This document shows, piece after piece, positions 6,659 through 64,000 of a stretch of 64,000 nucleotides of DNA (the first letter of the stretch is position 1; each line of letters opens with the position of its first letter). The position numbers were made by a program, and so were the translations under genes. Origin of the DNA: Acidobacteriota bacterium (GTDB taxonomy: Bacteria; Acidobacteriota; Thermoanaerobaculia; Multivoradales; UBA5704); NCBI GenBank assembly GCA_040005235.1, contig JBDTZG010000001.1, forward strand, positions 96,001-160,000, in the 5' to 3' direction. The notes under the pieces were generated by a model. The model saw nothing but the letters and a program-made list of their open reading frames with translations. It searched no databases and was not told where the DNA came from.

Positions 6659-7693
6659 TTACGGGACGATGTAGGCTTCGAAGATCGCGTCCCAGTTGAG
6701 CGAGGAGCTGCCCGGCTTGGCCGAGTTGAACGAGTAGGCATAGACCTGCCAGTCGTTATCGGGGTCGGGGATGTTCCAGATCGAGACCCAACCCGAGTCG
6801 GGGGTGCCGGTGATGTCGATCAGGTTCACCACGTGGTCGAAGCGGAAGGTCAGGTCGGCCACGAGAGTTCCGTCCTCGCGGTAGCGCTTGTACGGATAGG
6901 TTTGGTCGCAGGTGCCGAGCGCCTGGCAGCGGGCCGACGGCCCTCCGGTCTGGTGGGTGTTCCAAGTGAAGATGACCATGCGGCTCTTGCCCGCGAGCGG
7001 CGTCGATCCGAACTGGCGCAGCTGAATGCGGTCGATCAGGGCGTTGGAATCGCCCGTGCATGGAGTGGTGCCCTTGACCAGCTGGTCGGCGCACTGGCGC
7101 GCCGAGGCGTCGATCTCCTCGCGTCGGCCAAAGCTGTAGAAGTCCCGCAGGAGCGGGTCGAGGGTCGCCGGCACCACTTCGAGCGGCACCATGGCGATGC
7201 CGTTGGCCGAGCCTTCGGACAGCCGGGTGTAGTAGATGTAGCCTTCGAGAAAGTTGACGAAAAGAAACGGGAAGGCAGCCTGCTCCGGATTGAGGCTGGT
7301 CGCCGCCGAGACGCCGTCGATGGTGACGAAGCCGTGGTAGAAGGCGCCGTCCGTGAGCTGGGTCTTGGTAGCCGTGGAGGCCAGGGAGATCAGGTCGCGC
7401 ATCGCGGCGCTCCAGGTCTGCGTCGGACTCAGCGTGACATTGCCTTGGAGTGTGGTGGCGACCCCGTCGATGTCCCAGACGTGGTAGTGGATCACTCGCG
7501 CCGTGTTGCTCTGGTTGTTCACCGCGAGCAGCGTGTCGTGCGGATTCACCCCAGAGTCGATGCCGGTCTCAAAAAACGGCACGATCAGCGAGGCGGAGGG
7601 CACGTGATCGGGAGTCCCGGGAATCGCCAGAAGCGCCGCGGGAATGGCGAGGACGGAGAGGAAGAGCGTAAGCAGAAGGGGAAGCTTGCGCAT
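6659..7693 (-). CDS. Secreted hypothetical protein
   Basis: Strong AAGGAG RBS, signal peptide, DHVPSASLIVPFFE N-terminal motif and paired cysteines. No recognised catalytic motif. Confidence 0.75.
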   Translation of the reverse strand: MRKLPLLLTLFLSVLAIPAALLAIPGTPDHVPSASLIVPFFETGIDSGVNPHDTLLAVNNQSNTARVIHYHVWDIDGVATTLQGNVTLSPTQTWSAAMRDLISLASTATKTQLTDGAFYHGFVTIDGVSAATSLNPEQAAFPFLFVNFLEGYIYYTRLSEGSANGIAMVPLEVVPATLDPLLRDFYSFGRREEIDASARQCADQLVKGTTPCTGDSNALIDRIQLRQFGSTPLAGKSRMVIFTWNTHQTGGPSARCQALGTCDQTYPYKRYREDGTLVADLTFRFDHVVNLIDITGTPDSGWVSIWNIPDPDNDWQVYAYSFNSAKPGSSSLNWDAIFEAYIVP

Positions 7694-7824
7694 GAAGTCG
7701 TTTCTCCTTTCAGGGAGGTCGTTCAGGTTAGCCGGGCAACGGCGCTGCCGCCACCGGAAACTTTTGCCGGAGAAACCGGGCCGGAGGCGTGCCCTGGCTT
7801 ACCGGAGCAAGCGCGATGCCCGGC

Positions 7825-8499
7825 TTATCGAATCTGCCGGTACAACCGGACCAGCCGCTCGGGCGACACCCCGAAGGCGAACAGCAGCCAGATCAGCCAG
7901 TTGGTGGCGATCGTCTTGGTGATTCCGCCCTCGACGAAGCGGCGAGCGGCGGTGACCGCCGGGCCGGGGAGCAGCGCCAGGCCATGAGCGCGGTTTAAGC
8001 GACCCGCGAAATCTAGGTCTTCGAGGATCGGCCAGTCGCGATAGCCGCCAAGCTGCTCGAACACATCGCGGCGGACGAACTGCGCCTGATCGCCGAGCGG
8101 GCGCTTGGTGATCCGGGTACGCAGGTTGACAATCCGGTTTCCCAACCTGAATAGCGGCCGGTCGGCGTCGAAGCGGACGAAGAACGCCCCGCCCGCGGCA
8201 CCGGCTTCGATCGCCCGTCTAATGGCGCCGCCGCTCCCTGGCGGAAGCACCGTGTCGGCATGAAGAAAGAGCAGAATGTCGGCGTTGGGGGCCGCCGCCG
8301 CGCCGCGGTTGAGCTGCACCCCTCGACCAGGAGATCCGATCACGACCGTCGCCCCCATTTCGCGCGCGATGTCGAGCGTAGCGTCGGTGCTGCCGCCGTC
8401 CGAGACGATCAGTTGATCGGCCTCGGCGCGCGCCCGGGCGAGGTAGGCGCGAACCGCGCGTTCCTCGTTCAAGGTCGGGACGACGATCGCGAGACGCAT
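7825..8499 (-). CDS. GT2 glycosyltransferase, TIGR04283-like
   Basis: IVVPTLNEE, VSDGGSTDAT, GRGVQLNRGA, LFLHADT, GDQAQFVRR, PILEDL and TAARRF motifs. Confidence 0.85.
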   Translation of the reverse strand: MRLAIVVPTLNEERAVRAYLARARAEADQLIVSDGGSTDATLDIAREMGATVVIGSPGRGVQLNRGAAAAPNADILLFLHADTVLPPGSGGAIRRAIEAGAAGGAFFVRFDADRPLFRLGNRIVNLRTRITKRPLGDQAQFVRRDVFEQLGGYRDWPILEDLDFAGRLNRAHGLALLPGPAVTAARRFVEGGITKTIATNWLIWLLFAFGVSPERLVRLYRQIR

Positions 8500-45483: not shown

Positions 45484-48400
45484 CAGTAGCCCGGCTGGTT
45501 CTTGATCAGGTCGAACAAGGCGCGGGTCGCTTCGCGGTCGCGGTCTAGCAGCGGGAACAGCGCATTGAGGACCTGCTTCTCGCGGGTTTCGTCCCCTTTC
45601 CAACCCGCCGGAGCCTGCTCGCGCATCACAAGATCGATTTCAAGCGCCAACTCCAGGCGCTCATCCCCGTATTCGGCCCGGGGCTCCGCGACGATTCCGG
45701 CCCTGGCGCTGCCCGCCGCGAAGATCCGCGGCAGGTTGTTGTAGATCAGGGTCGCCTCGCGCTTGCCGTGCAGCTCTGCGGGCAGCCCCAAGTCGGTCTG
45801 CCTCGCCGCCAACCGCTTGGCCAGAGCCTCCTGGCCACGGAGGAACTCTTCATAGCTGATGGCGCCGGTCCTGAGCTGCTGGATCAGGTCTTCGAGCAGC
45901 TTCGACATCTCCTCGTAGAACCGGGGATCGGTCAACTGCTCGCGGAGGATGGTCTTTCTGACGTTGTTGATGATCCCCTCGGCGATCGCATTCTTCGACA
46001 GCTTGCCTTTCTCGTTGAGCTGTTGGGCGATTGCGTTGTGGATCCCGGTCTCGACGATCAGCTCGGTCAGCGACATCTCGCCCAGCTTCCCCAATCCCAC
46101 CGCGGGTTCGGCGTGGATGTAGGTGTTGAGGAGGTGGCGCATGTCCGCCTCGAAGGGCTTGGTGTCGAGCTCCTCGCCCGAGTGCTTTTTGATCGCGGAG
46201 CGAATTTCGCCGTAGCGCTCGACCTCCCTCTTGGCCGCAGCCGCCTCGGCGTCGGAATACCCGGCATCCTCAAGGTTCTGTGCGATGGCGACGTAGGCGC
46301 GCGCCAAGACCGCGACGGCTTTGTAGAACGAGACTCGCAAGGCTTCGGTCTCGTTGAGCGCTTCGGGGTTGGCGGCGTCGCCGCAAAAGTAGTGGAGGAA
46401 CTGTTCTACCTCCCGCGGCGGCGGCACCGGCTCGCACAGGTAGCGCAGCGCCTCCAGCGCCGCTTCGAGGTTCTTCCTGCCTTCCTTCAGCCAATCTTTC
46501 AAATGGACGTTGTTGTCGCCGCCATCGCCCAGATCGGTATCCAGCTCGTCCGAGTTATAGACGGCGATCGCTTCCTGCACTTTGCCGAACAGCTCCTTGA
46601 AGTCGACGATATGGCCGTAGTCCTTGTCGACTCCATCGAGGCGATTGGTCCGGCAGATGGCCTGGAACAGGTTGTGGTCGCGCAGCTCATGGTCGAGATA
46701 GATGTAGGAGCAACTCGGCGCGTCGAAGCCGGTCAGCAGCTTGGAGACGACGATCAGCAGCTTCAGGTTCGCCGGCTCTTCGATAAAGCGGCGCTTGGTC
46801 TCGTCTTCGTACTGCTTGGTGGTCTGATCGCGCCCGAGGACGTAGTTTGTGTAGGTGTCGAACTTGTAGCGCTCGTCGCTTTGGCTGGGCTCGCGCGAAA
46901 TCGCATTGTGGTTCGGCTCATACGAGGTGATGATTCCGCAATACCGGCCGAAACTGGTGTTCATAAACAGACGGTAGTAGTGGCAGGCGTCGTAGATCGA
47001 GGCGGCGACCAGGAGGGCGGTGCCGTGGTTGTCGTTGAGCCGGGACTCATTGGTGAAATCCTCGATGATGCTGGCGATGATTCGCTGTTTGCGTTCGCCG
47101 GAGCTCATCAGCTCTTCCATGGTGGCCCAGCGCTTGCGCAGCACCGCCTTCTGAAAATTGTTGAGGCGCTTGGTCTTCTGCTCGAACCACCGGTCGATGG
47201 CGGCCTGCGAGGTGAGCCGCTGCGGCACGTCGCGGGCCTCGTACTTGAGATCCAGGATCACGCCGTCGGCGACACCCTCGTGGAACTTGTAGGTGTGGAT
47301 GTAGGTGCCGAAGACGTCCTGCGTCATCCGCTTGTCTTTGCGCAGGAGCGGCGTGCCGGTGAAGCCGATGAAGATCGCGCCCGCGAGCCAGCGCTTCATC
47401 TGCTTGTTCATGTCGCCGCCCTGGGTCCGGTGGCACTCGTCCACGAAGACGTAGAAGCGTCCGCTGACGCGGGGCGGTTCGCCCTTCAAGTCGGACGCGT
47501 CGAACTTGTGGATCAGCGCGCACAGAAGGCGCTGTGTAGGGCTGCCCAGCTTTTCCACGAACGCCGCCCGCGAGGCGATACGCGGCGGGGGAGAATCGGC
47601 GCCAATGACCCCGGCGTTTTTCATCACGCCTTCGATCTGCTTGTCCAATTCGTCGCGATCGGTGACGATGAGAATGCGCGCTTCGGGGTCGTGCTCCAGG
47701 ACCCATTTCGCCAGGAGCACCATTACGATGCTCTTGCCGCTCCCCTGGGTGTGCCAGATGACGCCGCCCTCGCGCTTTGCGATGCGCTCTTGCGCTGCCT
47801 TCACGCCGAAGAACTGATGCGGTCGCGGCACCTTCTTCTGGCCGGCGTCGAAGAGGACAAAATTTCGGATCAGGTCGAGCAGCCGGGTCTTGCTACACAT
47901 CTGGGCGAGCGGGCGGTCGAGCAGCGCGCCCGCAACCGGTGCAGCACCGGTGGGCGCCTCGTCCTTCCATTCGACGAAGAACTGCTCCGGTGTGCCAGCC
48001 GTTCCGTAGCGGAGGCCTTGCGAGTCGCTGCCGGCGAAGAGGAGCTGGGCGGTGCTGAAAAACGCTTGATTGAAGATCTCTTCCTGGTTCGTAATGAGTT
48101 GCCGTACGCCGTCGCCGATATCGATCGAGCTGCGCTTGAGCTCGATCACCACCACGGCGAGGCCATTCAAATAGAGGACGATGTCCGGACGGCGCTCGTA
48201 GCCGCCTTTGAGCGTCACCTCCTCGGCGAGCGCGAAGTCGTTTCGTTCCGGGCGCTCCCAGTCGATCAAATGCACCGTTTCATTCACCCGGCCCGCTGCG
48301 ATCTGCACCGACACTCCGTATCGCAGGAGCTGGTAGGTGCGCAGGTTGGCCTGGTAGAGCGTGATGCCGGTCGAGTCGGCGGCTCTTTCGAGCTTCTGGA

Positions 48401-48602
48401 GAGCCGCGGAGATGTGGGCCGCCGAGTAGCCGCGGGTCACGAGGTTGTCGCGCAGGATCGTCGCTTCTATGCGGCGATTGTTCTCGCGCTTTTTCCACTC
48501 GCCGAGGTAGCGATACCCGAGGGCGTCGGGACGCGCCGAGTCGGTGAACAGGGCGACGATGCGGTTCTGCGTGGTGCGCTCGGAGCGGAGCGGTTCGTTC
48601 AT
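45483..48602 (-). CDS. hsdR: Type I restriction endonuclease subunit R
   Basis: [10 protein letters not shown]...IELK nuclease motif, [26 protein letters not shown] and QAICRTNR. Confidence 0.95.
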
Positions 48603-50002
48603 GGTAGAACCTCCCAATGGCCACCCTTGGCTGGGCCGACACGTCGCAATCGACCCGTGGCCTTGAGTTGGCGGATCTGCTTTTCCACCGCCCGTGGAGT
48701 TAAGTCCAGAGCTGATGCCATTTGCTGTGCGGAAAGACCCGGCTCCTTCTTCACCATGGCGAGAATTCGATCCTCGGTTTTCGCCGGCGTTTCTACCGGC
48801 GTTTCTACCGGCGTTTTCTCCGAACTTTTCTCCGAACTTTTCTCCGAACTTTTTCCGGCCGGATCGCCTTCGCCCTTTGGTCTCACGGCGTGGAGGTACT
48901 CAGACGAGAAGGCGAAATCCAGCCAAAGGTCGTGGCCGGCCAGCCGAATCTTCGGCTTCGGTGTTCCGGCGTCGCGGCAATCCTGGAAGATGCGCTGGAT
49001 GCCGCGTCCCCAGGCTTCGATTTCCCCGGCGCGGAAGAAGGCGTTGGCGATATTCGGGTTGTAGGGAAGCGAAGCGTGCTCGTACAGCAGGTCGCTCAGG
49101 TCCCAGCCCTCGGGCAGTACGGCGGGATTCCAGATGCTCAGCCGGTCCTCATAGACGCGGATCTGCACCGGAGCGGCCACGGCATAGTCGCGGTGGATCA
49201 ATGAATTGAGCAGGGCCTCGCGCAGCGCGGCATCGGGCACGGGGAAGGATTCGATGCGCTGAATGCCCTCATAGCGGATGGCGGCCTTGAGGTACTTGGT
49301 GCGCAACATTTCGAGGGTCGCCGCCACTTGGGTGAACAGGTCTCCGTGGACCTCATCGTGGTAAGCCAGATCGGATTCGGAGCGGAAGAAGCCGATCTTC
49401 ACGAAGGCGCCGCTCACGAAGGCCTCCGGGTCCTTGTGGAACAGCAACAGCGCAGCCCGTTTGAGGTGGGCGCCTTCGCGGAGTCTGAGCTTGTCGATGA
49501 GGTCCATGTAAGAGCCCTGCAGAGAGCCGGGTTGGACCCGCCCGCTGTGTCGCGCCAAGGCGCGGAAATTCCTGAGCGCGGGCCCCGATAGATTCTTGAT
49601 CGTCACGCCAGGAACGGGAACGCCGTCCCAAGTGCGGCCCTGCCTGCGTAGGAGAAAGCGATCCAGCGCGGCACCCTTCAATTCTTGGAGGGTGCTGCCG
49701 CTGCGCTGGTAGTAGTGGCCGCGATAGCTGATCGGCGAGGGGTAGGCCGACGTCACCACTTCGAGGAATTCTCGATCGCCTTCGCCGCGGAGGTTGACTT
49801 CGACGACGATGCCCAGCAGATCGCGGATCTTGTTCGGCAGCTCTTCCAACAGCCGCGCGGCGTCGGGGATGCCGACCACCCGCCCCTCGTCATCGCGCCC
49901 GATGACCAGCACGCCACCTTCTGCATTGGCGAAGCCGCACACCCAGCGCAGGTGATCGTCGCGCCACGATTCCTTCCATTCCGTGCGCTGGGATTCCTTC
50001 AT
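48599..50002 (-). CDS. Schlafen/AlbA_2 domain + HATPase_c_4 (RecG-C-like) + HTH protein
   Basis: [51 protein letters not shown] and C-terminal [14 protein letters not shown]. Confidence 0.85.
48784..48853. repeat. Coding 12-bp tandem repeats (SSEK x3, TPVE x2)
   Basis: ttctccgaactt x3 adjacent to ccggcgtttcta x2 plus a degenerate copy. Confidence 0.85.
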
Positions 50003-51249
50003 AACAGCCGCGTTCTCCCGGTAAAGAGCTCCTGCATCATCGCCTGCTTGAGGTCGCGGGTTTTGTTGCGGCGGGCTTCGAGGGCGGACAGTTCGGCGTC
50101 CATGTCGGAGAGGACGGTGCCGATGGCGGTTTGCTCGGCGTAGGACGGAAGTGGCACTTCGATACTGGACAGCGCCGCCGCACTGATATGTACCACGGCG
50201 TCACCCTGACCCTTGCTCGCCTTCTGTGCGTTGACTGGCGCGGTGTTGCAGTAGTAGCCCATGAACATAGGTTGCACGCCGGCAAGTCGAAGGATAACGA
50301 TGTCGCCACCTGCGAATGCATCGCAGTCATAGGTGAAGGCGACGCATTTCCCAATTTCCTCCTTGGTTTCACCCGATCCGGCAAACAACAGGTCTCCTAG
50401 CTTCAGCCTGGTCGCTGTAGCCGCAACCTCCGGAGAGATCCAAGAGTTGAACGACCTGATGTAGTCAGTGTGGTGCGTGTAGATCTCACCGTATCGGACG
50501 CAGGGCAGATCGCCGCTCTTGGCTTCATCCTTTTTGACGCCACGACCCTTCAGAAATATTCCGAGATCCCCCAACCGCTTCACCTCCCACTCGCCGCGGA
50601 AGCCGGGAAGGCGCGTCTGTCCGGTCAGAATCTGCTGCATGGCGGCATGTTTGAGATCGCGCTTCTTGCCGATGAGCCGATCCAGTCCAGCCAGCAGCGC
50701 ATCGACGTCGTTCAAGGCCGTCGTGATAGCCAGTTGTTCGGATAGGCTCGTCGGAAACGGGACTGCGACCCGTTTCACGTCACGAATGTTGATGCCCTTT
50801 ACTGCCTGTCCGATAGTATGAAGTGAGATCTGATGTTGAGCACTTGAAGCTTGAAGAGCGTGGTAGAGAAAATCCTGTGACACCGAAGGGCCGACTCTGA
50901 CTCTAGCTGTGTCTTGCGTGATGTTTGCACCGGTCAGCGAGGAAGGCACAAGAGCAACTCGGCCGGTTGTCCCGCGAATAGTGATTAAAACGTCGCCCAC
51001 AGCCAGGCGCGATCGCTTATAGGCGGCGTCGATCGTAGGATGGGTGAGCAGGAGGTCAGCCTCACTGATCCGACCTGCCATGACATCTTTCACTTTTATC
51101 ACTGGGACCCCGCCGGAGCAGTGCTGCCCGGGCATTAAGATTCCGTAGCAGATTGGCGAATCTCGTCGAACGCATTCTTCAAGGGAACAGATGTACCAAT
51201 CATCGGGAATTTCCCCTGTGACCTGGCTATGTCGGGCCGTCACTTCCAT
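49999..51249 (-). CDS. hsdS: Type I R-M specificity subunit S
   Basis: Two TRDs separated by conserved helices (EQLAITTALNDVD...KHAAMQQILTG; EQTAIGTVLSDMD...KQAMMQELFTG). Confidence 0.93.
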   Translation of the reverse strand: MEVTARHSQVTGEIPDDWYICSLEECVRRDSPICYGILMPGQHCSGGVPVIKVKDVMAGRISEADLLLTHPTIDAAYKRSRLAVGDVLITIRGTTGRVALVPSSLTGANITQDTARVRVGPSVSQDFLYHALQASSAQHQISLHTIGQAVKGINIRDVKRVAVPFPTSLSEQLAITTALNDVDALLAGLDRLIGKKRDLKHAAMQQILTGQTRLPGFRGEWEVKRLGDLGIFLKGRGVKKDEAKSGDLPCVRYGEIYTHHTDYIRSFNSWISPEVAATATRLKLGDLLFAGSGETKEEIGKCVAFTYDCDAFAGGDIVILRLAGVQPMFMGYYCNTAPVNAQKASKGQGDAVVHISAAALSSIEVPLPSYAEQTAIGTVLSDMDAELSALEARRNKTRDLKQAMMQELFTGRTRLL

Positions 51250-53663
51250 TCCGCTCCCATCTTTTCCAGATGCTTCTCGACACGAGTAGTGAGTGCCGCC
51301 ATTTCGTTGATGAGCTTCGGCAGCGGCGTGGCATACCTCTCGGCCAGCTCGCGGATGCGGCCGGTGAGGGTCTGAGAAACGCGGTCCAGCTCGCCCCGCA
51401 CGTTGGCCTCAAGCCGCGCCATCCACTTGTCGTCCACCACCAGCGTCTTGATCTCGGCCGCGGTGAGCTTCGAGTATTTCTCATAGGCCAGCGCATCGAG
51501 CGCGGCCTCCTGCTCCTTCACCGTGCGTTTGAGCACCGTTTCGCTCTCGGCCAGCTCCAGCCAGCGTTTGAGCACCGCCGCCTCGGCTTTGGCATCCTTG
51601 TCGCCTTTGATCTCCTTGAGCCGGGCGGTGACGTCGGCCTTGGCGATCCTGTCGAGCGCTCCCAGATAGCCCTCCTCGCCGCCGTGCTCCTCTTCCAGCT
51701 CGGCGAGACCGGCGGTGGCGGCTTCGAGGTGGGTCTGCTTCGCCTCGATCCGAGCTTCCTCCTTGGCGAAATAGCAGGCGACGATCAGCGGCTTGGGGAT
51801 CAGATCGCAGACCCAGCCCTTATCCTTTTGCTTACCCTTCTTGTCGGTCTCGACGATGCGGGACGGCACAGCGACCCAGCCGTCGGCGGCGATTAGGTAG
51901 GCGTCGTCCTGCATGGTCTCGGCCCAATAGTCCATCAGGTGCTGGTAGACGTCATAGGCATCGAGCAATGGCGCCTGGCGAAACGCCGCGAGAAGATCCT
52001 CGGCAAGGGACTCGATCAGCGCCTTGGGGTGGCCGTCTTTCCCGAAGCCCGTAAGGCGCGGCGTCATGGCCTTGCGCCAAGTGGCGAAACTCTTCGTCGC
52101 CTTCTTCTGGAACGCGGCGAACTCGGCGTGGCCGAGGATGCCGGATTTCACCTCGGCTATCGGTAGCTTGAGGCGCGCGTAACCGCGCCGACCCGCAGAT
52201 TTGAATAGATCGGCGCGCACGCCGGGAAGAACCTGCCAGTACGCAACGAGCGCGTCGAGATCACGCTCCGGAATGCCGCCGCGCAGGTGGCCGTCGATGT
52301 CCTGAAGATCCTCGGGCTCCGTGCTGTCGATGTAGCGCGGCAGATTGAGGTTGAAGTCGTTCTTCGGATCGGCGATCTCGTCCCGCGGCACCATCCGGGC
52401 GTAGCGTGGAGCGTCCACCTGTTTGGTGAAGACGTCGACGATGCGGTGGATGTCCTGCTCGCGCAGACGGTTCTTCGGGCCGTCCTTGAGGAAGCCCTTC
52501 GAGGCGTCGATCATGAACACGCCCTTGCGGCCCGCGGCGTTCTCCTTGTCGAGCACCACGATGCAGGCGGGGATGCCGGTGCCGAAGAAGAGGTTCGCGG
52601 GCAGCCCGATGATCCCCTTGAGAACGCCCGAGAGAACGAGCTGCCGGCGGATCGTCGCCTCCGCATTTCCGCGGAACAAAACACCATGGGGGAGAATGCA
52701 GGCGCCTTTGCCCGTGCCTTTCATCGAGCGAATGATGTGCAGCAGATAGGCATAGTCGCCCTGCTTGGCGGGCGGCTCGCCCCAGGCGAAGCGCTCGTAC
52801 GGGTCGTTCGAAGGCGTGAGGCCGGTCGACCAGGTCTTGTCGGAGAACGGCGGATTGGCGACGACGTAGTCGTAGGTACGGAGCTTCTTCTCGCCGTCCT
52901 TGAACTTCGGCGCGGCCAGCGTGTCTCCCGGGAGGATGTTGGCCGTCGGGAAGTCGTGCAGGATCATGTTCATGCGCGCCAGGCCCGCGGTGGTCACGTC
53001 CTTCTCTTGGCCTTCCAACGTGATGCGCTTGCCGGCCTGGGCCGCTACTTTGAGCAGCAGCGAGCCCGAGCCGCAGGTCGGGTCGTAAGCGGTGGTGGAG
53101 GCCTTTGCCTTCGCCGGCGAGATCCCGATCACTTGGGCGATCACGCGGCTCACCTCGGCGGGGGTGTAGAACTGTCCCTTGCTCTTGCCGCTTTCGGTGG
53201 CGAAGTGCCGCATCAGGTACTCGTAGGCGTCGCCGAGGATGTCGTCGTGATCGGCGCGATTCTGCGAGAAGTCGAGCTGGGGGCTGGCAAAGATATTGAT
53301 CAGGCCGGTGAGGCGCTCGACCTTCGCCGGCCCCTCGCCGAGTTTGTTCGAGTCGTTGAAATCGGGGAAGTCGCTGCGGGCCAGCCGGGCATTGGCCTCT
53401 ACGAGCGGCGCGATGACCTTCGTGTTGATCTTGTCGCCGATGTCGTCCTTGCCCCGAAGCTTGAGCATGTCTTCGAAGCTGGCACCTTTGGGGATCGTGA
53501 CCGGGGGGGCGAAGTCGGCGCTGTTGCCGTATTTGTCCGTGATGTACTTGATGAACAGGAGGAACAGAACGTAGTCCTTGTACTGACTGGCGTCCATGCC
53601 GCCGCGGAGCAAATCGCACGAGGCCCAGATGGAGGAGTAGAGATCGGATTTCTTGATCGGCAT
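51240..53663 (-). CDS. hsdM: Type I R-M methyltransferase subunit M (m6A)
   Basis: LRGGMDASQYKDY, GQFYTP, YDPTCGSG, VANPPF and PHGVLFRG. Confidence 0.96.
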   Translation of the reverse strand: MPIKKSDLYSSIWASCDLLRGGMDASQYKDYVLFLLFIKYITDKYGNSADFAPPVTIPKGASFEDMLKLRGKDDIGDKINTKVIAPLVEANARLARSDFPDFNDSNKLGEGPAKVERLTGLINIFASPQLDFSQNRADHDDILGDAYEYLMRHFATESGKSKGQFYTPAEVSRVIAQVIGISPAKAKASTTAYDPTCGSGSLLLKVAAQAGKRITLEGQEKDVTTAGLARMNMILHDFPTANILPGDTLAAPKFKDGEKKLRTYDYVVANPPFSDKTWSTGLTPSNDPYERFAWGEPPAKQGDYAYLLHIIRSMKGTGKGACILPHGVLFRGNAEATIRRQLVLSGVLKGIIGLPANLFFGTGIPACIVVLDKENAAGRKGVFMIDASKGFLKDGPKNRLREQDIHRIVDVFTKQVDAPRYARMVPRDEIADPKNDFNLNLPRYIDSTEPEDLQDIDGHLRGGIPERDLDALVAYWQVLPGVRADLFKSAGRRGYARLKLPIAEVKSGILGHAEFAAFQKKATKSFATWRKAMTPRLTGFGKDGHPKALIESLAEDLLAAFRQAPLLDAYDVYQHLMDYWAETMQDDAYLIAADGWVAVPSRIVETDKKGKQKDKGWVCDLIPKPLIVACYFAKEEARIEAKQTHLEAATAGLAELEEEHGGEEGYLGALDRIAKADVTARLKEIKGDKDAKAEAAVLKRWLELAESETVLKRTVKEQEAALDALAYEKYSKLTAAEIKTLVVDDKWMARLEANVRGELDRVSQTLTGRIRELAERYATPLPKLINEMAALTTRVEKHLEKMGAEWK

Positions 53664-53718
53664 GGGGGCCGAAAGTATGTCCCACATTCCTCTCCGACGG
53701 TTTGCGAGCCCTTCCGAT

Positions 53719-54990
53719 TTAGGGTGCCCCGACCCGCCACCAGGCAAACCCATACCGCTCCGCCCCCGGATTCTGAATCGGGCTCACCACAGCCAGCCCC
53801 CCGCCTTTCAGGAACGTCAACGCCAGGTACTCGCCTCCGGGGTCGCGGGGGAGGGGCTGGCCTCCTTTCTGCGGGGTGCGGCTCCAGGTGTCGGGCTGGA
53901 AGGGTGGCGCTTCGAGGGTTCGGGGCGGCGCGTTGCCGGGGGCGAGTTGGAAGCGGGCCACGTGGGCTTGCATCGTGGCGGCCGGGCCGGAGAACCAGGT
54001 GGCCGCCAGCTCTCCGGCGCCTTGGGCGACGAGGTAGGGGAAGTACATGAGGTCTTGGCTTTGGACGACGTGCCAGGTCGACCAGGTGGCGCCTTGGTCG
54101 GCGGAGCGGGCGAGCCAGAGGCCTTCTTCGTTGGACCCTAGGGAATAGATATGGCCTTGGGCGTCCCAGGCGATCGGCTCGACCCAGCGGGGCAATGGGT
54201 CGTCGTCGGGGAAGGGGAAGGGCCATGCGCGGTGGCCGGGGGCCGGGTGCTTGCTCCAGGTTCTGCCGCCGTTGGTGCTGACCGCAATGAGATCGACGCC
54301 CGGGTGGTTCTTGTTGCCCGAGGCCGAGTAGGGCGTCACGCGCACGGCGATTTCGCCGCGGGGTCCGACCGCGAGGTGGCTCGATCCGCCCTGGGGGGTG
54401 ATCCGGTCCTGTTCGACCCAGGTGCGGCCGTCGTCCGGGCTGGTCGCGTGGCAGACGCCCTCGCCGTCGTTCCAAATCACGTGCGGGACTCCGTCCGACG
54501 CCACCTCGACCCAGGGCCGGTCGTCGAACCGGGTCTTCGACAGCAGCGTCCAGGTCCAGGTGGCCCCGGCGTCGCGGCTGACGCCGATGCTGATCTGGAC
54601 CCCTTCCGACGTCTGCCGATCGAAGAGCATGGACACGAAATAGAGGGTGCCGTTCGGGGCGACCGCGAGATCCACGTCCGAATTGCCGATCGCGCCTTGG
54701 GCCTCCGTTCCGACGTTCACGCGGTCCCAGGTGGCGCCCTCATCCCGGCTGGCCCAGAGCGTCGGCGTGCTCTCGCCATAGCCGGCGACGAACAGCGTCC
54801 CGCTGGGATGCTCGACGACCATCGGCTCCCGGGTGCGCTGGCCGAGGTGCTCGACGGGCGGGGCCAGGATCAGCGCGGTAGCCTCCGGCGCCCGGGGGAG
54901 GCGCGCGGCGTCAGGGGCGAGAGAGCAGCCGGCCGCGAGCGCCAGAAGGCTTGAGCACAGGAACGTCGTTGGAATTCGTTCGAACATCAT
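53719..54990 (-). CDS. BNR/Asp-box repeat (sialidase-like) lipoprotein
   Basis: Lipobox LAAGC, and repeated SxDxGxTW (SRDEGATW, SRDAGATW, SPDDGRTW, STNGGRTW, SADQGATW). Confidence 0.85.
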   Translation of the reverse strand: MMFERIPTTFLCSSLLALAAGCSLAPDAARLPRAPEATALILAPPVEHLGQRTREPMVVEHPSGTLFVAGYGESTPTLWASRDEGATWDRVNVGTEAQGAIGNSDVDLAVAPNGTLYFVSMLFDRQTSEGVQISIGVSRDAGATWTWTLLSKTRFDDRPWVEVASDGVPHVIWNDGEGVCHATSPDDGRTWVEQDRITPQGGSSHLAVGPRGEIAVRVTPYSASGNKNHPGVDLIAVSTNGGRTWSKHPAPGHRAWPFPFPDDDPLPRWVEPIAWDAQGHIYSLGSNEEGLWLARSADQGATWSTWHVVQSQDLMYFPYLVAQGAGELAATWFSGPAATMQAHVARFQLAPGNAPPRTLEAPPFQPDTWSRTPQKGGQPLPRDPGGEYLALTFLKGGGLAVVSPIQNPGAERYGFAWWRVGAP

Positions 54991-57340: not shown

Positions 57341-60300
57341 ATGAGCAGCATCGACGATCTGGGCAGCGCCGCCGGGCTTTCGGAGCAGGACCGGGAGCTG
57401 CTGGCCCTGTTGCTTGCCGAAGAGGGGGTCGAGCTGTCGGAGAGCGCGGCGATTCCGAAGCGTGCGATGGAGCTTCGGGGCGAGGCGCCTCTTTCCTGGT
57501 CGCAGGAGCGGCTGTGGGTGATCGACCGGATGGCGCCGGGCACCTCGACGCTCGACATCCCGGTCTCCGTGCGCCTGCTCGGCCGGCTCGACCGCGACGT
57601 GTTGGCGCGCTGCTTCGCCGAGATCGCCCGCCGGCACGAGTCGCTGCGCACCCGTTTCGTCGAGCGCGGCGGCGTGCCGCGCCAGGTGATCGATCCTCCC
57701 GTGGCGGACACCGCCGGGCACCTCGCGCTCGCCCAGCCCTTGGTCGATCTGGTGGGCCTTTCCGCCGGGCGTTGGGATGTCGAGATGCACCGCCTCGCCG
57801 CCGAGGACACCCGCCGCTCGTTCGACCTCGCGCGCGGCCCGTTGTTTTCGACCGTCTTGATCCGCCGGAGCCCCGACGAGCACGCGCTGCTGCTCAACAT
57901 TCATCACATCGTGACCGATGGCTGGTCGATGGGCGTGCTGATCGGCGAGCTGTCGGCGCTGTACCCCAAGGTCGCGGCGGCGGCCGCCGCCGGTCCGGCG
58001 GGGACGTTCGTGCCGCTGCCCGAGCTGCCGGTGCAGTACGCCGACTTCGCGGTCTGGCAGCGCGAGCGGTTGGGGGCCGACCAGGGGTTTGCCGAGCAGC
58101 TCAAATACTGGCGCGACCGCCTGACCGGCGTGCCGGCGCTGGAGCTGCCGACCGATCTGGCGCGGCCGGCGATCCAGAGCTTCCGCGGCGGCAGCGAGGT
58201 CCGCGTTTTGCCGCCGCCGCTCGCGGCGGGGCTGGCCGAGATGGCGCGGATGACCAGCGCCTCCCCCTACATGGTGCTGCTCGCGGTCTTCTCGCTGGTG
58301 CTCGGCCGCCTGTCGGGACAGGAGGACTTTGCGATCGGCAGCCCGATCGCCGGCCGCGGCCGGCCGGAGCTGGAAGGGCTGATCGGGTTCTTCCTGAACT
58401 CGCTCGCTCTGCGCGCCGACCTGTCGGGCAATCCGACCTTCCGCGAGCTGGTCGGCCGCGCGCGCGACACGGCGCTCGGCGCCTACGCCAACCAGGACGT
58501 GCCGTTCGAGCGGCTGCTCGGCGAGCTGGATGTCGAGCGCGATCTTTCGCGGACGCCGATCTTCCAGGTGCTGCTCAACATGCTGAACCTGCCGCGCGCC
58601 GAAGCGCGGTTCGAGGGCCTCGCGATCGAGCCGATCTCGGTGCCCGAGGTCGAATCGAAATTCGACCTCACCATCTACGCCTCCGAGTCGGCGGATGGGC
58701 TGATGCTGCGCCTGGTCTACAACGCCGACCTGTTCACCGCGGAGCGGATGCGCGAGCTGCTCGCCCAGCTCGAAGGCGCGCTGGTCCAGGCGTTTGCGGC
58801 GCCCGATCGGCCGATCTCGCAGATCCGCCTGCGGACCGCGGCGGCGGATGCCGGTTTGCCCGATCCGAAGGCGCCGCTCGACGCCACCTGGCGCGGCTCG
58901 GTGGTCGATCTGTTCCGGGACCAGGCGGCGCGCCGGCCGGAGCGCTTGGCGGTGACCGATCGCGCCGGCTCCTGGAGCTACGGCGAGCTGGCGGAAGCCT
59001 CGACGCGGATCGCCGCGCGGCTGCGCCGTCCGGGGGAAGGTTGGGCAGGCTTGGCGCGCGGCGAGCGGGTGGCGATCTGGACCCATCGGAGCGCGGCTCT
59101 CCCGGCCGCGGTGCTCGGCGCGCTCGAAGCGGGCGGCGTGTTTGCGATGCTCGATCCGGCTTATCCGGCGGAGCGGATTGTCGCGATGCTCGATCTCGCC
59201 GAGCCGCGGGCGTTCGTCCGTCTCGAAGCCGCGGGGCCGCTGCCGCCGGAAGTCGACGAATGGCTCGCGCGCGCCGGGGCGATCCGGGTGGACCTTCCCG
59301 CGGGCGGCGCGGCGGCGGTGCTGGAATCTTTGCCGGTTGCCGAAGAAAGCGCCGAAAGCCCCGGAAGCGAGACGATCGAGATCGGCCCGGACGATCCGGC
59401 GCTCGTCGCGTTCACTTCCGGCTCGACCGGCCAGCCGAAGGGAATCGTCGGCCGGCACGGGCCGCTCTCGCATTTCCTGCCTTGGCAGTGCGCGGAAATG
59501 GCGCTCTCGGAAAGTGACGTGTTCAGCCTGCTCTCCGGCCTCGCGCACGATCCGTTGCAGCGCGATCTGTTCACGCCGCTCAGCTTGGGCGCCGCGATCG
59601 CCGTGCCCGATCCGAGCGACATTGCGACCCCCGGCCGGCTCGCCGCCTGGATGGCCGAGCGGGGAGTCTCGGTCGCCCACTTGACCCCGGCGATGGGCCA
59701 GCTGATCGCGGAATCCGCCGAGCTGTCGGCGTCGCGCGGCGTGCCGGTGGCGGTGCCGTCGCTGCGTCGTGCTCTGCTGGTGGGCGATGCACTCACCCGG
59801 CTCGACGTAGCGAGGCTCGAACGGATCGCGCCGAACCTCACCTGCATCAACCTCTACGGCTCGACCGAGACCCAGCGCGCGGTGGCGTATCACGTGGTCG
59901 AACGGACGCCGGCGCGGGGCGAGATTGGGTCCGTCCCGCAGCTACTGGCTGCTGCCGAAGGCGCCCGAAGGAGCGAGGAGGCGGACCCAACCTCGCCCTC
60001 GGCCGCCACGCAGCGCGAAATCCTGCCCCTTGGCCGCGGCATGCAGGACGTGCAGCTTCTGGTGCTCGATGCGGAAGGCCGGCCGGCGGGCTTCGGCGAG
60101 GTGGGCGAGATCGCGGTGCGCAGCCCTCATCTGGCGGCCGGCTATCTGGGCGATCCGGAGATGACCCGGGCGCGCTTCGTGATCTCGCAAGAGGCCGCGG
60201 CCGATCCGGCCGATCGGATGTACAAGACCGGCGACCTCGGCCGCTACCGGCTGGATGGCGAGGTCGAGTTCGTGGCGCGCGCCGATGCGCAGGTGAAGAT

Positions 60301-60973
60301 CCGCGGCTTCCGAATCGAGCCGGGGGAGATCGAGGCGGCGCTTTCGCGCCACGGCGGAGTGCGCGAGGCGGTGGTCGTCGCGCGGACGGACGACAACGGC
60401 GCCAAGCGGCTGGTGGCCTATTACGTCGTCGCCCCCGGCGCGCCCACGCCTTCGGCCGAAGAGCTGGGCGAGTTTCTACGCGCGCGGCTGCCGGAGTACA
60501 TGGTGCCGGCGCTCTGGCTGGCGCTCGAACGGTTGCCGCTCACGCCGAACGGCAAGATCGACCGCCGGGCGCTGCCCGCGCCGCGCGCGGCTTCGACCGC
60601 CTCGGCCGAATACGTGGCGCCCAAAACCGACACCGAGCGGGCGATCGCCGAGGTCTGGCGCGAGGTGCTGGGGCTCGACCGGGTCGGCCGTCACGACAAG
60701 TTTTTCGCCCTCGGCGGCCACTCGCTGCTGCTGGTGCGCGCGCATGGACGATTGGCCGAGAAACTGGGCCGCGAGATCGCGGTGATCGACCTGTTCCGCC
60801 ACCCTGACGTGGCGTCGCTCGGCCGATTCTTGGACGGCGGCGCCACGTCGGACGTCGCCGCGGTCGAGGCGCGCGCGGAGGTGATCGAAGCGGGCAAGGA
60901 CCGCCGCCGGATGCGGCTCGAACGAAGGCAGGGGGCCGGTCCATCCGGCGTTACGTATGGGGACGAGCGATGA
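57341..60973 (+). CDS. Non-ribosomal peptide synthetase, one module C-A-PCP (Lys2-like A domain)
   Basis: C domain: HHIVTDGWS. A domain: FTSGSTGQPKG, AHDPLQRD, YGSTE, YKTGDL, QVKIRGFRIE, NGKIDR. PCP: FFALGGHSL. Confidence 0.95.
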   Translation: MSSIDDLGSAAGLSEQDRELLALLLAEEGVELSESAAIPKRAMELRGEAPLSWSQERLWVIDRMAPGTSTLDIPVSVRLLGRLDRDVLARCFAEIARRHESLRTRFVERGGVPRQVIDPPVADTAGHLALAQPLVDLVGLSAGRWDVEMHRLAAEDTRRSFDLARGPLFSTVLIRRSPDEHALLLNIHHIVTDGWSMGVLIGELSALYPKVAAAAAAGPAGTFVPLPELPVQYADFAVWQRERLGADQGFAEQLKYWRDRLTGVPALELPTDLARPAIQSFRGGSEVRVLPPPLAAGLAEMARMTSASPYMVLLAVFSLVLGRLSGQEDFAIGSPIAGRGRPELEGLIGFFLNSLALRADLSGNPTFRELVGRARDTALGAYANQDVPFERLLGELDVERDLSRTPIFQVLLNMLNLPRAEARFEGLAIEPISVPEVESKFDLTIYASESADGLMLRLVYNADLFTAERMRELLAQLEGALVQAFAAPDRPISQIRLRTAAADAGLPDPKAPLDATWRGSVVDLFRDQAARRPERLAVTDRAGSWSYGELAEASTRIAARLRRPGEGWAGLARGERVAIWTHRSAALPAAVLGALEAGGVFAMLDPAYPAERIVAMLDLAEPRAFVRLEAAGPLPPEVDEWLARAGAIRVDLPAGGAAAVLESLPVAEESAESPGSETIEIGPDDPALVAFTSGSTGQPKGIVGRHGPLSHFLPWQCAEMALSESDVFSLLSGLAHDPLQRDLFTPLSLGAAIAVPDPSDIATPGRLAAWMAERGVSVAHLTPAMGQLIAESAELSASRGVPVAVPSLRRALLVGDALTRLDVARLERIAPNLTCINLYGSTETQRAVAYHVVERTPARGEIGSVPQLLAAAEGARRSEEADPTSPSAATQREILPLGRGMQDVQLLVLDAEGRPAGFGEVGEIAVRSPHLAAGYLGDPEMTRARFVISQEAAADPADRMYKTGDLGRYRLDGEVEFVARADAQVKIRGFRIEPGEIEAALSRHGGVREAVVVARTDDNGAKRLVAYYVVAPGAPTPSAEELGEFLRARLPEYMVPALWLALERLPLTPNGKIDRRALPAPRAASTASAEYVAPKTDTERAIAEVWREVLGLDRVGRHDKFFALGGHSLLLVRAHGRLAEKLGREIAVIDLFRHPDVASLGRFLDGGATSDVAAVEARAEVIEAGKDRRRMRLERRQGAGPSGVTYGDER

Positions 60974-63900
60974 GCGACGAAGGGAGTAGAACCGGCCTCG
61001 AGGTGGCGATCGTCGGCCTGGCCGGGCGTTTCCCCGGCGCGGACGACGTCCAGGGCTTCTGGCGGAACCTGATCGCGGGCGTCTCGTCGGTGGTCGACCT
61101 CTCCCCCGAGGAGCTGATCGCCCGCGGCGCCGATCCGGCTCAGGTGGCCGATCCGGCTTGGGTCAAGTCGGCCGCCGAGGTCTCCGGGGCCGAGCTGTTC
61201 GATGCCCGGTTCTTTGACGTCTCGCCGCGCGAGGCCGAGGTGCTCGATCCCCAGCACCGGCTGTTCCTCGAAGCCTGTTGGGCGGCGCTCGAAGACGCCG
61301 GGATCGACCCGGCGCGCGACCGCCGGCCGATCGGCGTGTTCGCCGGCTCGTCGATCTCGACCTATTTCTTGCGCAACGTCCTGCCGAGCGGCGTCGACAT
61401 CGGGGCGCTCGGCGGCCTGCTCGGCGCGGACAAGGACCATCTGCCGACGCTGGTGTCGTGGAAGCTCGATCTTATCGGGCCGAGCTTTGCAATCCAGAGC
61501 GCCTGCTCGACTTCGCTGGTGGCGGTTCACGTGGCGGCGCAGAGCCTGTTGAACGGCGAGTGCGACGCGGCTCTGGCGGGCGGCGTGTCGATTGTCTTTC
61601 CGCAGAACGAGGGGTACGAGTGGAGCGAGGGCGGAATCTTCTCGCGCGACGGCCGCTGCCGGTCGTTCGACGAGCAGGGGGCGGGGACGATCTTCGGCAG
61701 CGGCTTGGGCGTCGTCGTGCTCAAGCGCCTGGACGACGCGATCCGCGACGGCGACCGGATTCGCGCGGTGATCAAAGGCTCGGCGGTGACCAACGACGGC
61801 GGCGCGCGCTTGGGCTACACGGCGCCGAGCGCGGCGGGCCAGGCGAGGACCATCCGCGCCGCGCAGCTGCTCGCCGAGGTCGAACCGGAAACGATCGGCT
61901 TCGTCGAAGGGCACGGCACGGCGACCCAGCTCGGCGATCCTATCGAGGTGGCTGCGTTGGCCGAGACGTTCGGCCACGCGCGCCCGGGCACCACGGCGCT
62001 CGGCTCGGTCAAGAGCAACATCGGCCATCTGAACGCGGCGGCGGGCATCGCCGGATTGATCAAAGCGGTGCTGGCGGTCGAGCACGGCGAGGTGCCGGCG
62101 ACGCTCCATTTCGCACGGCCGAACCCGCAGATAAATCTCGCGAGCGGGCCATTCTTCGTCAACACCGAGGCGACGCCGTTTCCGGTTCGAGAGGGCGCGC
62201 CGCGCCGCGCAGCGGTCTCCTCGTTCGGCATGGGCGGCACGAACGCCCACGCGATCCTCGAACAGGCGCCCGCCGCGCCGGTCTCCGGCCCATCGCGCGA
62301 ATTTTCGATCGTCGTCCTGTCGGCCAAAAGCGCCGTCGCCCTCGACGCCGCGACCGACCGGCTCGCGGCGCACCTGGCCGCGCGCCCTGAGATCTCGCTC
62401 TCGGACGCGGCCTACACCTTGGCTCTCGGCCGCAAGGTGTTCGCCCACCGCCGGGCCGTGGCGGTCGATGGCGCGACCGGTTTTGCCGCGGCGCGTACGG
62501 GCGCCGGCAGCTTCACCGCGCCGTCCGCTCTCAATGCCGAGCGGCCGGTGTACTTTCTCTTTCCCGGCCAGGGTGCGCAATACCTCGGCATGGGCGAAGA
62601 GCTGTATGCCGCCGAGCCGGAGTTTCGCGCCGAGATCGATCGCGCCGCCGAAGCGCTGGGAACGGTCTCTGGCCTCGATCTGCGCGACGTGCTGTTCGTC
62701 CGCGGCAGGTCGGGCGAGGAGCGCGCGGCGGCCGAGGCGCAGCTCTCCCGCACCGAGTGGACTCAAAGTGCGCTGTTCGCGGTCGAGTCGGCTCTCGCGC
62801 GGCTCTGGCTCTCCTGGGGTGTCGAGCCTTCGGGCATGATCGGCCACAGCGTCGGCGAGTACGTGGCGGCCCACCTGGCGGGCGTGTTCTCGTTCGAGGA
62901 CGCCGTGCGGCTGGTGGCGCTGCGCGGCCGGCTGATGCAGTCGATGCCCGAAGGCGCGATGCTCGCCGTGCCGCAAACGGAGACCTGGGTGGGGGAGCGC
63001 CTCGCGGCGGATTTCCCGGCGCTTGAAATCGCCGCGAAAAACGCACGGGAGAGCGTGGTGGTGGCTGGACCCGCGGCGGAGATCGAGCGTTTCGCCGCCG
63101 CGGTCGCCGCCGAGCTGCCCGACGGCCTTGAAGCGCGGCGGCTTCACACTTCACACGCGTTTCACACCTCGGTGATGGAGCCGATTCTCGCCGAGTTCGA
63201 GCGCGCGGTGGCGGCGGCCAGCCCCAAGGCGCCCGAGCGCCGGTTCATCTCGAATCGCACCGGCGGCTGGATCGGAGCGGCGGAGGCGACCGATCCGGCC
63301 TATTGGGCCGGCCACCTGCGCCACGCCGTCCGGTTCGGCGAGGGGCTCGCGACGCTGGGAGTGGAAGGGACCGCGATCTACCTCGAAGTGGGTCCCGGCA
63401 ATTCGCTCGGGACGCTCGCGCGGCGCCAGCCGTCGGCACCGGGCGCCGTGCTCGCGAGCCTGCGCCATCCGAAAGAGGAGATCCGCGACGTCGAGCGACT
63501 GGCGCGCGCCGCGGCCGAGCTTTGGGCGCGCGGCGGCGAAATCGATTGGCGGCGCTATTTCGGCACGGAGAAACGGCGCAAGGTCGAGCTGCCGACCTAT
63601 CCGTTCGAACGTCAGCGCTTCTTCCTCGAAGCGCGGCCGGGCCAACTCGATATTTCCCGGACCCGCCCAAGCCTTGCGGCGTCGGTTCCCGGATCGACGG
63701 CTGCGGCTGCTGCGAGGGCGGCGGCGTCGGCGCAGGTCGCGACCCATCCGCGGCCGGCCTTGAGCACCGCGTATGTGGCGCCGCGCTCCGACAGCGAGCG
63801 CCGGATCGCGGCGATCTGGAGCGACCTGTTCGGGGTCGCCGAGGTGGGCGTCCACGACAACTTCTTCGATCTCGGCGGCCATTCGCTGCTCGCGACCCGG

Positions 63901-64000
63901 GTCCTCTCGCGCGTTCGCGAAGCGTGCGGCGTCGACCTGCCGTTGGACACTCTGTTCGCCACGCCGACCATCGAGGTGATCGCCCAGGTGGTGGACGAAC
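60970..64000 (+). CDS. Type I PKS module KS-AT-carrier (runs off the window; absent from ORF track because there is no stop)
   Basis: Translated by hand from ATG 60970 (ATGA overlap). KS: VAIVGLAGRFPGA, DPQHR, QSACSTS, EGHGTAT, KSNIGHL, SSFGMGGTNAH. AT: FPGQG, GHSVG, HAFH. Carrier: DNFFDLGGHSLL (~63856-63890). No KR or DH. Confidence 0.93.
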   Translation, partial: MSDEGSRTGLEVAIVGLAGRFPGADDVQGFWRNLIAGVSSVVDLSPEELIARGADPAQVADPAWVKSAAEVSGAELFDARFFDVSPREAEVLDPQHRLFLEACWAALEDAGIDPARDRRPIGVFAGSSISTYFLRNVLPSGVDIGALGGLLGADKDHLPTLVSWKLDLIGPSFAIQSACSTSLVAVHVAAQSLLNGECDAALAGGVSIVFPQNEGYEWSEGGIFSRDGRCRSFDEQGAGTIFGSGLGVVVLKRLDDAIRDGDRIRAVIKGSAVTNDGGARLGYTAPSAAGQARTIRAAQLLAEVEPETIGFVEGHGTATQLGDPIEVAALAETFGHARPGTTALGSVKSNIGHLNAAAGIAGLIKAVLAVEHGEVPATLHFARPNPQINLASGPFFVNTEATPFPVREGAPRRAAVSSFGMGGTNAHAILEQAPAAPVSGPSREFSIVVLSAKSAVALDAATDRLAAHLAARPEISLSDAAYTLALGRKVFAHRRAVAVDGATGFAAARTGAGSFTAPSALNAERPVYFLFPGQGAQYLGMGEELYAAEPEFRAEIDRAAEALGTVSGLDLRDVLFVRGRSGEERAAAEAQLSRTEWTQSALFAVESALARLWLSWGVEPSGMIGHSVGEYVAAHLAGVFSFEDAVRLVALRGRLMQSMPEGAMLAVPQTETWVGERLAADFPALEIAAKNARESVVVAGPAAEIERFAAAVAAELPDGLEARRLHTSHAFHTSVMEPILAEFERAVAAASPKAPERRFISNRTGGWIGAAEATDPAYWAGHLRHAVRFGEGLATLGVEGTAIYLEVGPGNSLGTLARRQPSAPGAVLASLRHPKEEIRDVERLARAAAELWARGGEIDWRRYFGTEKRRKVELPTYPFERQRFFLEARPGQLDISRTRPSLAASVPGSTAAAAARAAASAQVATHPRPALSTAYVAPRSDSERRIAAIWSDLFGVAEVGVHDNFFDLGGHSLLATRVLSRVREACGVDLPLDTLFATPTIEVIAQVVDE

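Follow-up and report, generated by a model that had tools for sequence, protein, structure and literature searches.

A Lys2-like adenylation domain ahead of a ketosynthase in an Acidobacteriota assembly-line gene cluster

Described systems closest to ORF1

Fungal alpha-aminoadipate reductase, Lys2, has the domain order ADA-A-T-R, in which A is an adenylation domain, T a carrier domain and R a reductase. What might an A domain of this kind do in a bacterial assembly line? The question is raised by a gene cluster from an Acidobacteriota bacterium of the Thermoanaerobaculia (assembly GCA_040005235.1, contig JBDTZG010000001.1), a hybrid of nonribosomal peptide synthetase (NRPS) and polyketide synthase (PKS). 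Its first gene, open reading frame 1 (ORF1), encodes a condensation (C) domain, a Lys2-like A domain and a carrier, and the overlapping gene, ORF2, opens with a ketosynthase (KS). The label A* is used below for the Lys2-like type of A domain and C* for the condensation domain that precedes it. The window is the whole 64-kb stretch of DNA analysed, contig positions 96001-160000 (genome label G000, contig C118), and the coordinates of the cluster are window positions on the + strand unless stated otherwise. Published sources are cited by PMC number, each for the part of its text that was available.

Lys2 and module 1 of ACV synthetase (ACVS) both activate the delta-carboxyl of aminoadipate, and the ADA domain of Lys2 is described as a truncated C domain that is needed for adenylation, with Lys2 itself possibly derived from an elongation module (PMC7884236). 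ORF1 shares with Lys2 the HDPxQRD and TETQRAV signatures and an alignment over positions 2-578 of the Lys2 profile, but it has a full catalytic C domain where Lys2 has the truncated ADA, it has no reductase, and it belongs to a multi-modular line in which a KS comes next. Module 1 of ACV synthetase, which takes L-alpha-aminoadipate, also needs an N-terminal truncated C-like domain (PMC7884236). Unlike ORF1, it is followed by C domains and no KS, and it is not reported to be Lys2-like in sequence. Its pocket code, which is taken here to be EPRNIVEFVK, also differs from that of ORF1.

Among bacterial systems, Zmn16 of the zeamine pathway of Serratia plymuthica is like ORF1 in that it belongs to an NRPS-PKS line and, in a comparison made by code only, matches at eight of the ten pocket positions (PMC3547906). 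In zeamine, however, amino-acid modules follow the residue, six residues precede the PKS module, which includes a ketoreductase (KR), and position 330 of the pocket is Leu. In the PKS-NRPS hybrids of McyE and NdaA a gamma-linked D-Glu is provided by a C-A-T module whose code is of the DPRH type, but there the PKS part comes before the D-Glu module. The McyE parallel, drawn in a preliminary description of this locus, is not supported by the sequences compared: the two longest of 15 matching open frames from 401 genomes of the cyanobacterial phylum are both plain (C-A-T)x3 proteins, and no McyE-type architecture is found in either. Enzymes of the VinN/BolO type are stand-alone and adenylate the beta-carboxyl of Asp or methyl-Asp (PMC7756342); they are a different lineage from A* and feed PKS starter units.

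Bacterial A domains that are sister to the fungal alpha-aminoadipate reductases have been seen in combination with an acyltransferase of family PF01757 (Bushley and Turgeon, 2010; PMC2823734). A protein of Pseudomonas sp. NFX15 (contig 5467-8274, 935 aa) has this form, with a Lys2-like A domain of the TETPQA subtype (SGLGHDPVYRD), a carrier and a PF01757 membrane acyltransferase; unlike ORF1 it is a single A-T unit and has neither a C domain nor a PKS part. The gene stands beside Wza- and Wzz-type polysaccharide export genes and, because these adjoin it, the protein may aminoacylate a polysaccharide. No Lys2-type A domain is present in the PDB, where the best chain, LgrA, matches the N-terminal core at only about 60 bits and the PDB relatives 7dq5 and 6m01, placed with the VinN/BolO type, match ORF1 over the C-terminal subdomain only (about 134-138 bits). 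The literature searched describes neither the transfer of an amino diacid, tethered by its side chain, to a KS nor full bacterial C*-A*-T modules as relatives of Lys2, and a search for biosynthetic gene clusters of Thermoanaerobaculia returned nothing specific.

The C*-A*-T module and the coupled ketide module

The module encoded by ORF1 (57341..60973, 1210 aa) is real and intact, is of the known hybrid NRPS-PKS kind and is well conserved, with orthologues that are 73-95% identical in six congeners. Pfam assigns Condensation at aa 47-502, AMP-binding at 525-936, AMP-binding_C at 996-1072 and PP-binding at 1101-1164. The C* domain (57479..58846, aa 47-502) has an intact HHIVTDG motif, all the core motifs of A* (58901..60595, aa 521-1085) are intact, and the peptidyl carrier domain (60626..60844, aa 1096-1168) has its GGHS serine. 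Ahead of C* lies a docking-like extension of about 45 aa, of a kind also found in ORF3 and ORF4, both of which receive chains. The gene stops 42 aa past the carrier domain and has no thioester reductase domain; the KS opens the next ORF, which is joined to ORF1 by a 4-base overlap, and this bears out the earlier observation of an A domain that lacks the reductase of Lys2. The system had been placed at 58890-64000 and described as one NRPS-PKS. The A-T and KS-AT-carrier parts do lie in that span and the hand-off is coupled, but the module begins further upstream, at 57341, with its C domain, the A-T unit and the KS are on two overlapping ORFs, and ORF2 runs 17.5 kb past the window.

Within A*, the usual FDxS core is replaced by the clade-specific LSGLAHDPLQRDLFTPL (59531..59581, aa 731), which covers pocket positions 235 (D), 236 (P) and 239 (R), and the A5 region contains NLYGSTETQRAV (59849..59884, aa 837), which holds positions 322, 330 and 331 (L, R, A). 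The other strings named in the preliminary description are at aa 700 (KGIVGRH), 763 (TPGRLAAWM), 779 (AHLTPAMGQL), 813 (LVGDALT) and 898 (GRGMQDVQLLV), so that all seven are found in ORF1 where they were expected. In the cluster AHDPLQ occurs only in ORF1; each of the remaining 13 A domains has a core of the usual FDxS type (SFDASV, SFDIAG, AFDFSV etc.).

The likeness to Lys2 is also seen with the Lys2 profile TIGR03443, which gives ORF1 a score of 597.8 bits, whereas module 7, an ordinary module from the cluster, reaches 217.8 bits and aligns only at profile positions 417-732. With an E-value of 3.9e-179 for ORF1, the match is not due to chance. The best stretch, aa 257-855 against profile 2-578, begins in the middle of the C domain, such that the back half of C* corresponds to the N-terminal (ADA) part of the profile. 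The score is below the equivalog cut-off of 1030.1 bits, and both the ADA and the A-core signatures are present. Two distant relatives, from Scytonema and a member of the Binatia, reach 957.1 and 983.3 bits, totals that include a second, ordinary module, and both are likewise without a reductase. The A domain of ORF1 is, by its sequence, a member of a Lys2-like clade, as had been proposed. Within the genome this type stands apart, since among 74 A-domain stretches compared with the ORF1 A core only three score highly (801 bits for the self-match, then 318 and 225) and the others reach at most 94 bits.

Two further Lys2-like A domains of the genome are found on contigs C132 (44970-56000) and C84 (381-2723). 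The one on C84, which is of the TETPQA subtype, is truncated where the contig ends. The C132 domain, which belongs to a module with 651.1 bits against TIGR03443 (profile 2-751), ends its protein, and the next protein comprises a KS and an acyltransferase (AT), about 460 unassigned residues, a carrier and a C domain. A weak aminotransferase-like match at 84101-84364 of C132, inside a 2059-aa KS-AT-...-C open frame, may represent a PKS-embedded aminotransferase.

The ten-residue pocket code read from the alignment columns is DPRHLVLRAK, which reproduces the code extracted by hand in the preliminary description. The columns are correctly placed, because in module 8 of the same cluster they yield DFWNIGMVHK, the published code for Thr (PMC3547906, Table 2). 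Positions 235, 236, 239 and 278 are D, P, R and H, making the code one of the DPRH type, and the pocket has Arg at positions 239 and 330. Zmn16-A1, the first A domain of the prezeamine peptide line, has the code DPRHLALLAK, for which software predicts 2-aminoadipate (PMC3547906, Table 2), and nuclear magnetic resonance (NMR) data show that the peptide starts with 'gamma-aspartate', a side-chain-linked Asp (PMC5811116). In the enzymes of the VinN type the distal alpha-carboxylate is bound by an Arg at or near position 331 (PMC7756342). Compared with Zmn16-A1, ORF1 has V in place of A at position 301 and R in place of L at 330. The code of Lys2, which is assumed here to be DPRHFVMRAK, is matched by ORF1 at eight of ten positions and differs at 299 and 322. 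Literature searches for DPRHFVMRAK and for DPRHSGVVGK returned nothing. Since the ORF1 code is equally close to that of Zmn16-A1 and to the assumed code of Lys2, the chain length of the substrate cannot be called, and the earlier preference for aminoadipate or Glu over Asp is not supported. Activation of the side chain, on the other hand, is a reasonable deduction from the likeness to the code of Zmn16-A1 and from the use of the distal carboxyl by Lys2, and the balance tips slightly towards an A* that activates the distal carboxyl of an acidic amino acid.

ORF2 begins at 60970, and its first 1010 aa are encoded up to position 64000; the full ORF has 6840 aa and ends at contig position 177492, beyond the window. 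In these 1010 aa Pfam finds only KS, AT and PP-binding domains. The KS (60994..62274, aa 9-435) has the active-site Cys (QSACSTS), both His residues (EGHGTAT and NIGHL) and an ADKDH motif; the AT (62545..63429, aa 526-820) has GHSVG and HAFH; and the carrier domain (63787..63999, aa 940-1010), which has GGHSL, is followed just past the window by a C domain. HAFH is presumed to mark the AT as malonyl-type. The gap between the AT and the carrier is about 120 aa, and no KR, dehydratase (DH), enoylreductase (ER) or methyltransferase (MT) is detected by Pfam in this part of ORF2. What follows the ORF1 carrier is accordingly a minimal hybrid PKS extension module, with Cys-His-His in the KS, the GHSxG serine in the AT, a carrier serine and no reductive domains, and both motifs and Pfam bear out the KS-AT-carrier order without KR or DH that had been described.

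Distribution of A* and the proposed chemistry

How widely is this domain type distributed? A word-index search finds at least 120 proteins at 609 bits or more, and the named sources among the matches listed are Thermoanaerobaculia, Acidobacteriota, Longimicrobium, Herpetosiphonaceae, Binatia, Pyrinomonadaceae, Scytonema, Brasilonema and Nostocales, which also points to a Thermoanaerobaculia-like acidobacterium as the host. In a representative library, of which only the best 148 new proteins (from the top 150) were used, 86 proteins contain A*, with 96 A* domains between them, 94 of which are preceded by a C domain; the 9402 matches at E <=1e-30 in this library sum several A domains per protein and are not a family size. 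In other samples, 14 of the 401 genomes of the cyanobacterial phylum have a match at E <=1e-30, a scan of genome contigs with generic A-domain patterns finds A* at only two of 80 loci, and a tblastn search of plasmids gives 12 distant records. A* is, as judged from these matches, common in uncultured bacteria and stands mostly in ordinary peptide-elongation positions, and the rarity at first ascribed to it is not upheld. In the code alignment, for which 40 of 121 sequences passed a single-stretch filter, the code starts with DPR in 37, NPR in two and DAR in one, and 11 of the 40 have exactly DPRHLVLRAK. There are two main subtypes, TETQRA, to which ORF1 belongs, and TETPQA, found in cyanobacteria, Pseudomonas, the Burkholderia gladioli plasmid and on contig C84.

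The plasmid in question, bgla_1p of B. gladioli BSR3 (NC_015382.1, 108419-115876), encodes an annotated NRPS, WP_013699871.1, with a Lys2-like A domain (SGLGHDPLFRD, TETPQV); a type I PKS gene precedes its gene, and two genes for phytanoyl-CoA dioxygenases and one for an MbtH protein come next. The locus was considered as the bolagladin cluster and this was ruled out, bolagladin being made with a VinN-type enzyme. A Nostoc locus with an intermediate motif was also set aside, as it encodes an ordinary C-A-T-C-A-T protein that ends in a thioesterase (TE).

In nine of the 11 loci read, a KS follows the A*-T unit. Five of these are in the congeners G003, G006, G001, G005 and G007, three are more distant modules, with A* in an internal position, in G008, G012 and G034, and one is the C132 module of the same genome, where the KS is on the next protein; the nine are kin and do not count as independent events. 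The other two are the orthologue in G002, which has no NRPS or PKS gene for 20 kb after it (the best ORF2 relative in G002 is only 59% identical), and a contig from Pyrinomonadaceae, in which a C domain takes the place of the KS.

The C* domain goes together with A*. A FastTree phylogeny was made of 57 C domains, 14 from the cluster, seven from relatives, four from an NRPS of G002 and the rest, each >380 aa, from seven other ORFs of the genome; one sequence was entered twice and support values were not printed. All the C domains that precede A* (those of ORF1, of three orthologues and three relatives, and of C132 and C84 in the same genome) fall into a single clade, which is nested among the elongation C domains. 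The first C domains of the lines on C34, C79 and C86, and of the NRPS in G002, form a separate long-branch clade that is starter-type in look. A starter role for the C domain of ORF1 was therefore rejected, as C* is placed outside that clade and among the elongation domains. No donor module adjoins ORF1 in this genome (G000) or in G001, G005 and G006, in which 3 to 16 kb upstream were read; directly upstream of ORF1 there is no NRPS, acyl ligase or acyl carrier protein (ACP), and a type I restriction-modification system is found there. N-acylation of the loaded residue is uncertain because C* is not of the starter type and no donor is adjacent, and the earlier description of the residue as N-acylated is to this extent not supported. 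In G002 the ORF1 orthologue comes directly after a four-module NRPS (C23 5270-18676) that has a starter-like first C domain and lacks a TE. The counterpart of this NRPS in the present genome (80-81% identity) is divided by an assembly gap between the end of C79 (50145-60914) and the start of C83; its last domain is a carrier, it too lacks a TE, and unrelated genes follow it. As speculation, this NRPS might dock in trans to ORF1. The C* clade, and the reach of the Lys2 profile into the back half of C*, fit the description of ADA as a truncated C domain and of Lys2 as the descendant of an elongation module, and the idea of a bacterial relative of the Lys2 ancestor agrees with what the alignment suggests.

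The favoured reading, for and against which the chances appear evenly balanced, is that a Lys2-like C*-A*-T module loads an acidic amino acid via its side chain and hands it to a KS. In this scheme A* would pick an acidic alpha-amino acid (aminoadipate, Glu or Asp), adenylate its distal carboxyl and tether the residue to the carrier through it, leaving the alpha-carboxylate free. C*, if given a donor, would then acylate the alpha-amine. The translationally coupled KS-AT-carrier of ORF2 would add one malonyl unit, which would stay unreduced, and the C domain that follows would link the beta-keto acyl chain to a Gly-type module. Twelve more amino-acid modules, one of them Tyr-type with an in-line sulfotransferase, would extend the chain before the TE frees the product. 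Which amino acid is loaded, which of its carboxyls is activated, that the keto group stays unreduced and that the amine is acylated are all predictions from the domains.

Several points weigh against this reading. C* is not of the starter type and has no adjacent donor module, and the tie of ORF1 to characterised enzymes consists of one profile score and one ten-residue code, a code that cannot tell Asp from aminoadipate. The passage from A*-T to a KS is local to this lineage, because in the broad sample a KS follows only one of 96 A*-T units; a C domain follows 55, the protein ends after 29, a TE follows six, the sequence after two is unassigned, and no T was found in three. No lysW, and no lysine 6-transaminase above cut-off, was found in this 100%-complete genome, other routes to aminoadipate not having been searched for, and no dedicated supply of aminoadipate is therefore seen. 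The DPR triplet may also be a scaffold of the clade, and it is from here that a competing account starts, in which A* activates the alpha-carboxyl of an acidic or other amino acid in the ordinary way and the KS yields a statone-like, gamma-amino-beta-keto unit whose side chain is free. The DPR start, shared by 37 of the 40 aligned members and set within the conserved HDPLQRD motif, is possibly structural; A* occurs mostly at ordinary elongation positions, with C domains before and after it; and some proteins of the representative library have two consecutive A* modules, which side-chain activation would turn into runs of iso-peptide bonds. This account is nevertheless considered unlikely, given that the characterised enzymes to which ORF1 is tied, Zmn16-A1 by code and Lys2 by profile and function, use the distal carboxyl, that the pocket codes of the clade, with just two main types (TETQRA and TETPQA), are a better fit to one or two conserved special substrates than to a lineage of general purpose, and that the co-inheritance of a special C* suggests an unusual acceptor geometry.

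The substrate could alternatively be an omega-amino acid that has no alpha-carboxylate, such as beta-alanine or gamma-aminobutyrate (GABA), which the KS would extend to an amino-oxo-alkanoyl unit. Two animal proteins, ACSF4-U26 and Ebony, are presumably members of the wider Lys2-like group. Of these, ACSF4-U26 activates beta-alanine and Ebony conjugates it (PMC10531068). As a universal metabolite beta-alanine would suit the wide spread of A*, and the failure to find lysW and lysine 6-transaminase points the same way. Against this, the two Arg residues of the pocket, at 239 and 330 as in the assumed code of Lys2, suit an anionic group, and the nearest published code is that of Zmn16-A1, which installs Asp; an omega-amino substrate is on these grounds quite improbable. 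A different doubt concerns C*, which may have no donor and only support A* in the way that ADA supports adenylation in Lys2 (PMC7884236), with the loaded residue as a free-amine starter, or which may be served in trans by the four-module NRPS of C79/C83. The restriction-modification genes upstream, the grouping of C* with the elongation domains that precede other A* and the placing of the four-module NRPS, beside the ORF1 orthologue in G002 and elsewhere here, would all agree with one or other version. However, the HHIVTDG motif of C* is intact, ORF1 has the same N-terminal extension as the chain-receiving ORF3 and ORF4, and the G002 orthologue is not followed by ORF2-like genes, so that G002 may represent a different pathway or an assembly artefact; a donorless or trans-fed C* is thus possible though doubtful. 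To return to side-chain loading, the fullest form of the proposal joins two claims: that aminoadipate, Glu or Asp tethered through its distal carboxyl goes straight to a KS to give a beta-keto amino-diacid with a free alpha-carboxylate in a sulfated 13-residue peptide, and that bacterial C*-A*-T modules are the stock of fungal Lys2, in which C* was truncated to ADA and a reductase was gained. The two together are put forward tentatively, with the chances somewhat against their both being right.

The rest of the cluster and what it may mean

The domain map of the cluster, which is based on Pfam and on phmmer searches with domains of ORF1 and ORF2, comprises four co-directional genes over 53 kb, with one malonyl module, the ORF1 module, 13 further A-domain modules, an in-line sulfotransferase and a TE. 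After its KS-AT-T part ORF2 has five C-A-T modules, with the sulfotransferase after the third (PF13469, aa 4339-4607). ORF3 (2238 aa) contributes two modules, and ORF4 (7272 aa) six modules, one epimerisation (E) domain and the TE. The code is DILQ-GMVWK in modules 2, 3, 13 and 14, DASTVAAVCK in module 4 (before the sulfotransferase), DASTIAAVCK in module 12, DAATVAAVCK in modules 6 and 9, DAWQFGLIDK in module 5, DVWHISLVDK in module 7, DVLSVGRISK in module 10 and DFWNVGMVHK, for Thr as with module 8, in module 11. DILQ-GMVWK is taken to be Gly-like, and DASTVAAVCK and DASTIAAVCK to be Tyr-like. No other NRPS genes are present on the same 325-kb contig.

The sulfotransferase (contig positions 169984-170790) matches PF13469 with 97 bits and also PF00685, and lies between the carrier of the DASTVAAVCK module and the next C domain. 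Its position after a Tyr-code module suggests on-line O-sulfation of tyrosine. Two C domains, at aa 1155-1580 of ORF3 and aa 2725-3170 of ORF4, both precede a Thr-code A domain and form a long-branched pair that is separate from all other C domains. One of them comes after an E domain; the other does not, and may have a dual E/C or a modifying role.

Downstream of the cluster are a PLD-like gene, a di-haem oxidoreductase and a glycosyltransferase. The upstream type I restriction-modification system (45486-53753, - strand) consists of hsdR (45486-48899), hsdS (49999-51249) and hsdM (51240-53753), with a Schlafen/AlbA_2 + HATPase_c_4 + HTH gene (48599-50002) between hsdR and hsdS, all on the - strand.

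What, then, would a Lys2-like module of this kind mean for the biology of these bacteria? The A* branch is, on present sequences, a large, uncharacterised bacterial branch related to Lys2, and as a domain type it is not rare. The ORF1-ORF2 pair probably builds an unusual acidic keto-amino-acid link, by a proposed chemistry that is plausible and testable, if unproven. If the proposal is true, a large and almost unstudied branch of bacterial NRPSs installs acidic amino acids via their side chains, and the present lineage feeds such a side-chain-linked residue to a polyketide step, where standard prediction tools would misdraw the links. The complete C domain that stands where Lys2 has a stump also offers a testable model for the origin of Lys2 and for the need of an N-terminal domain in adenylation. 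In practical terms, product structures could then be predicted better for the many NRPS clusters found in uncultured bacteria, those like Acidobacteriota included.

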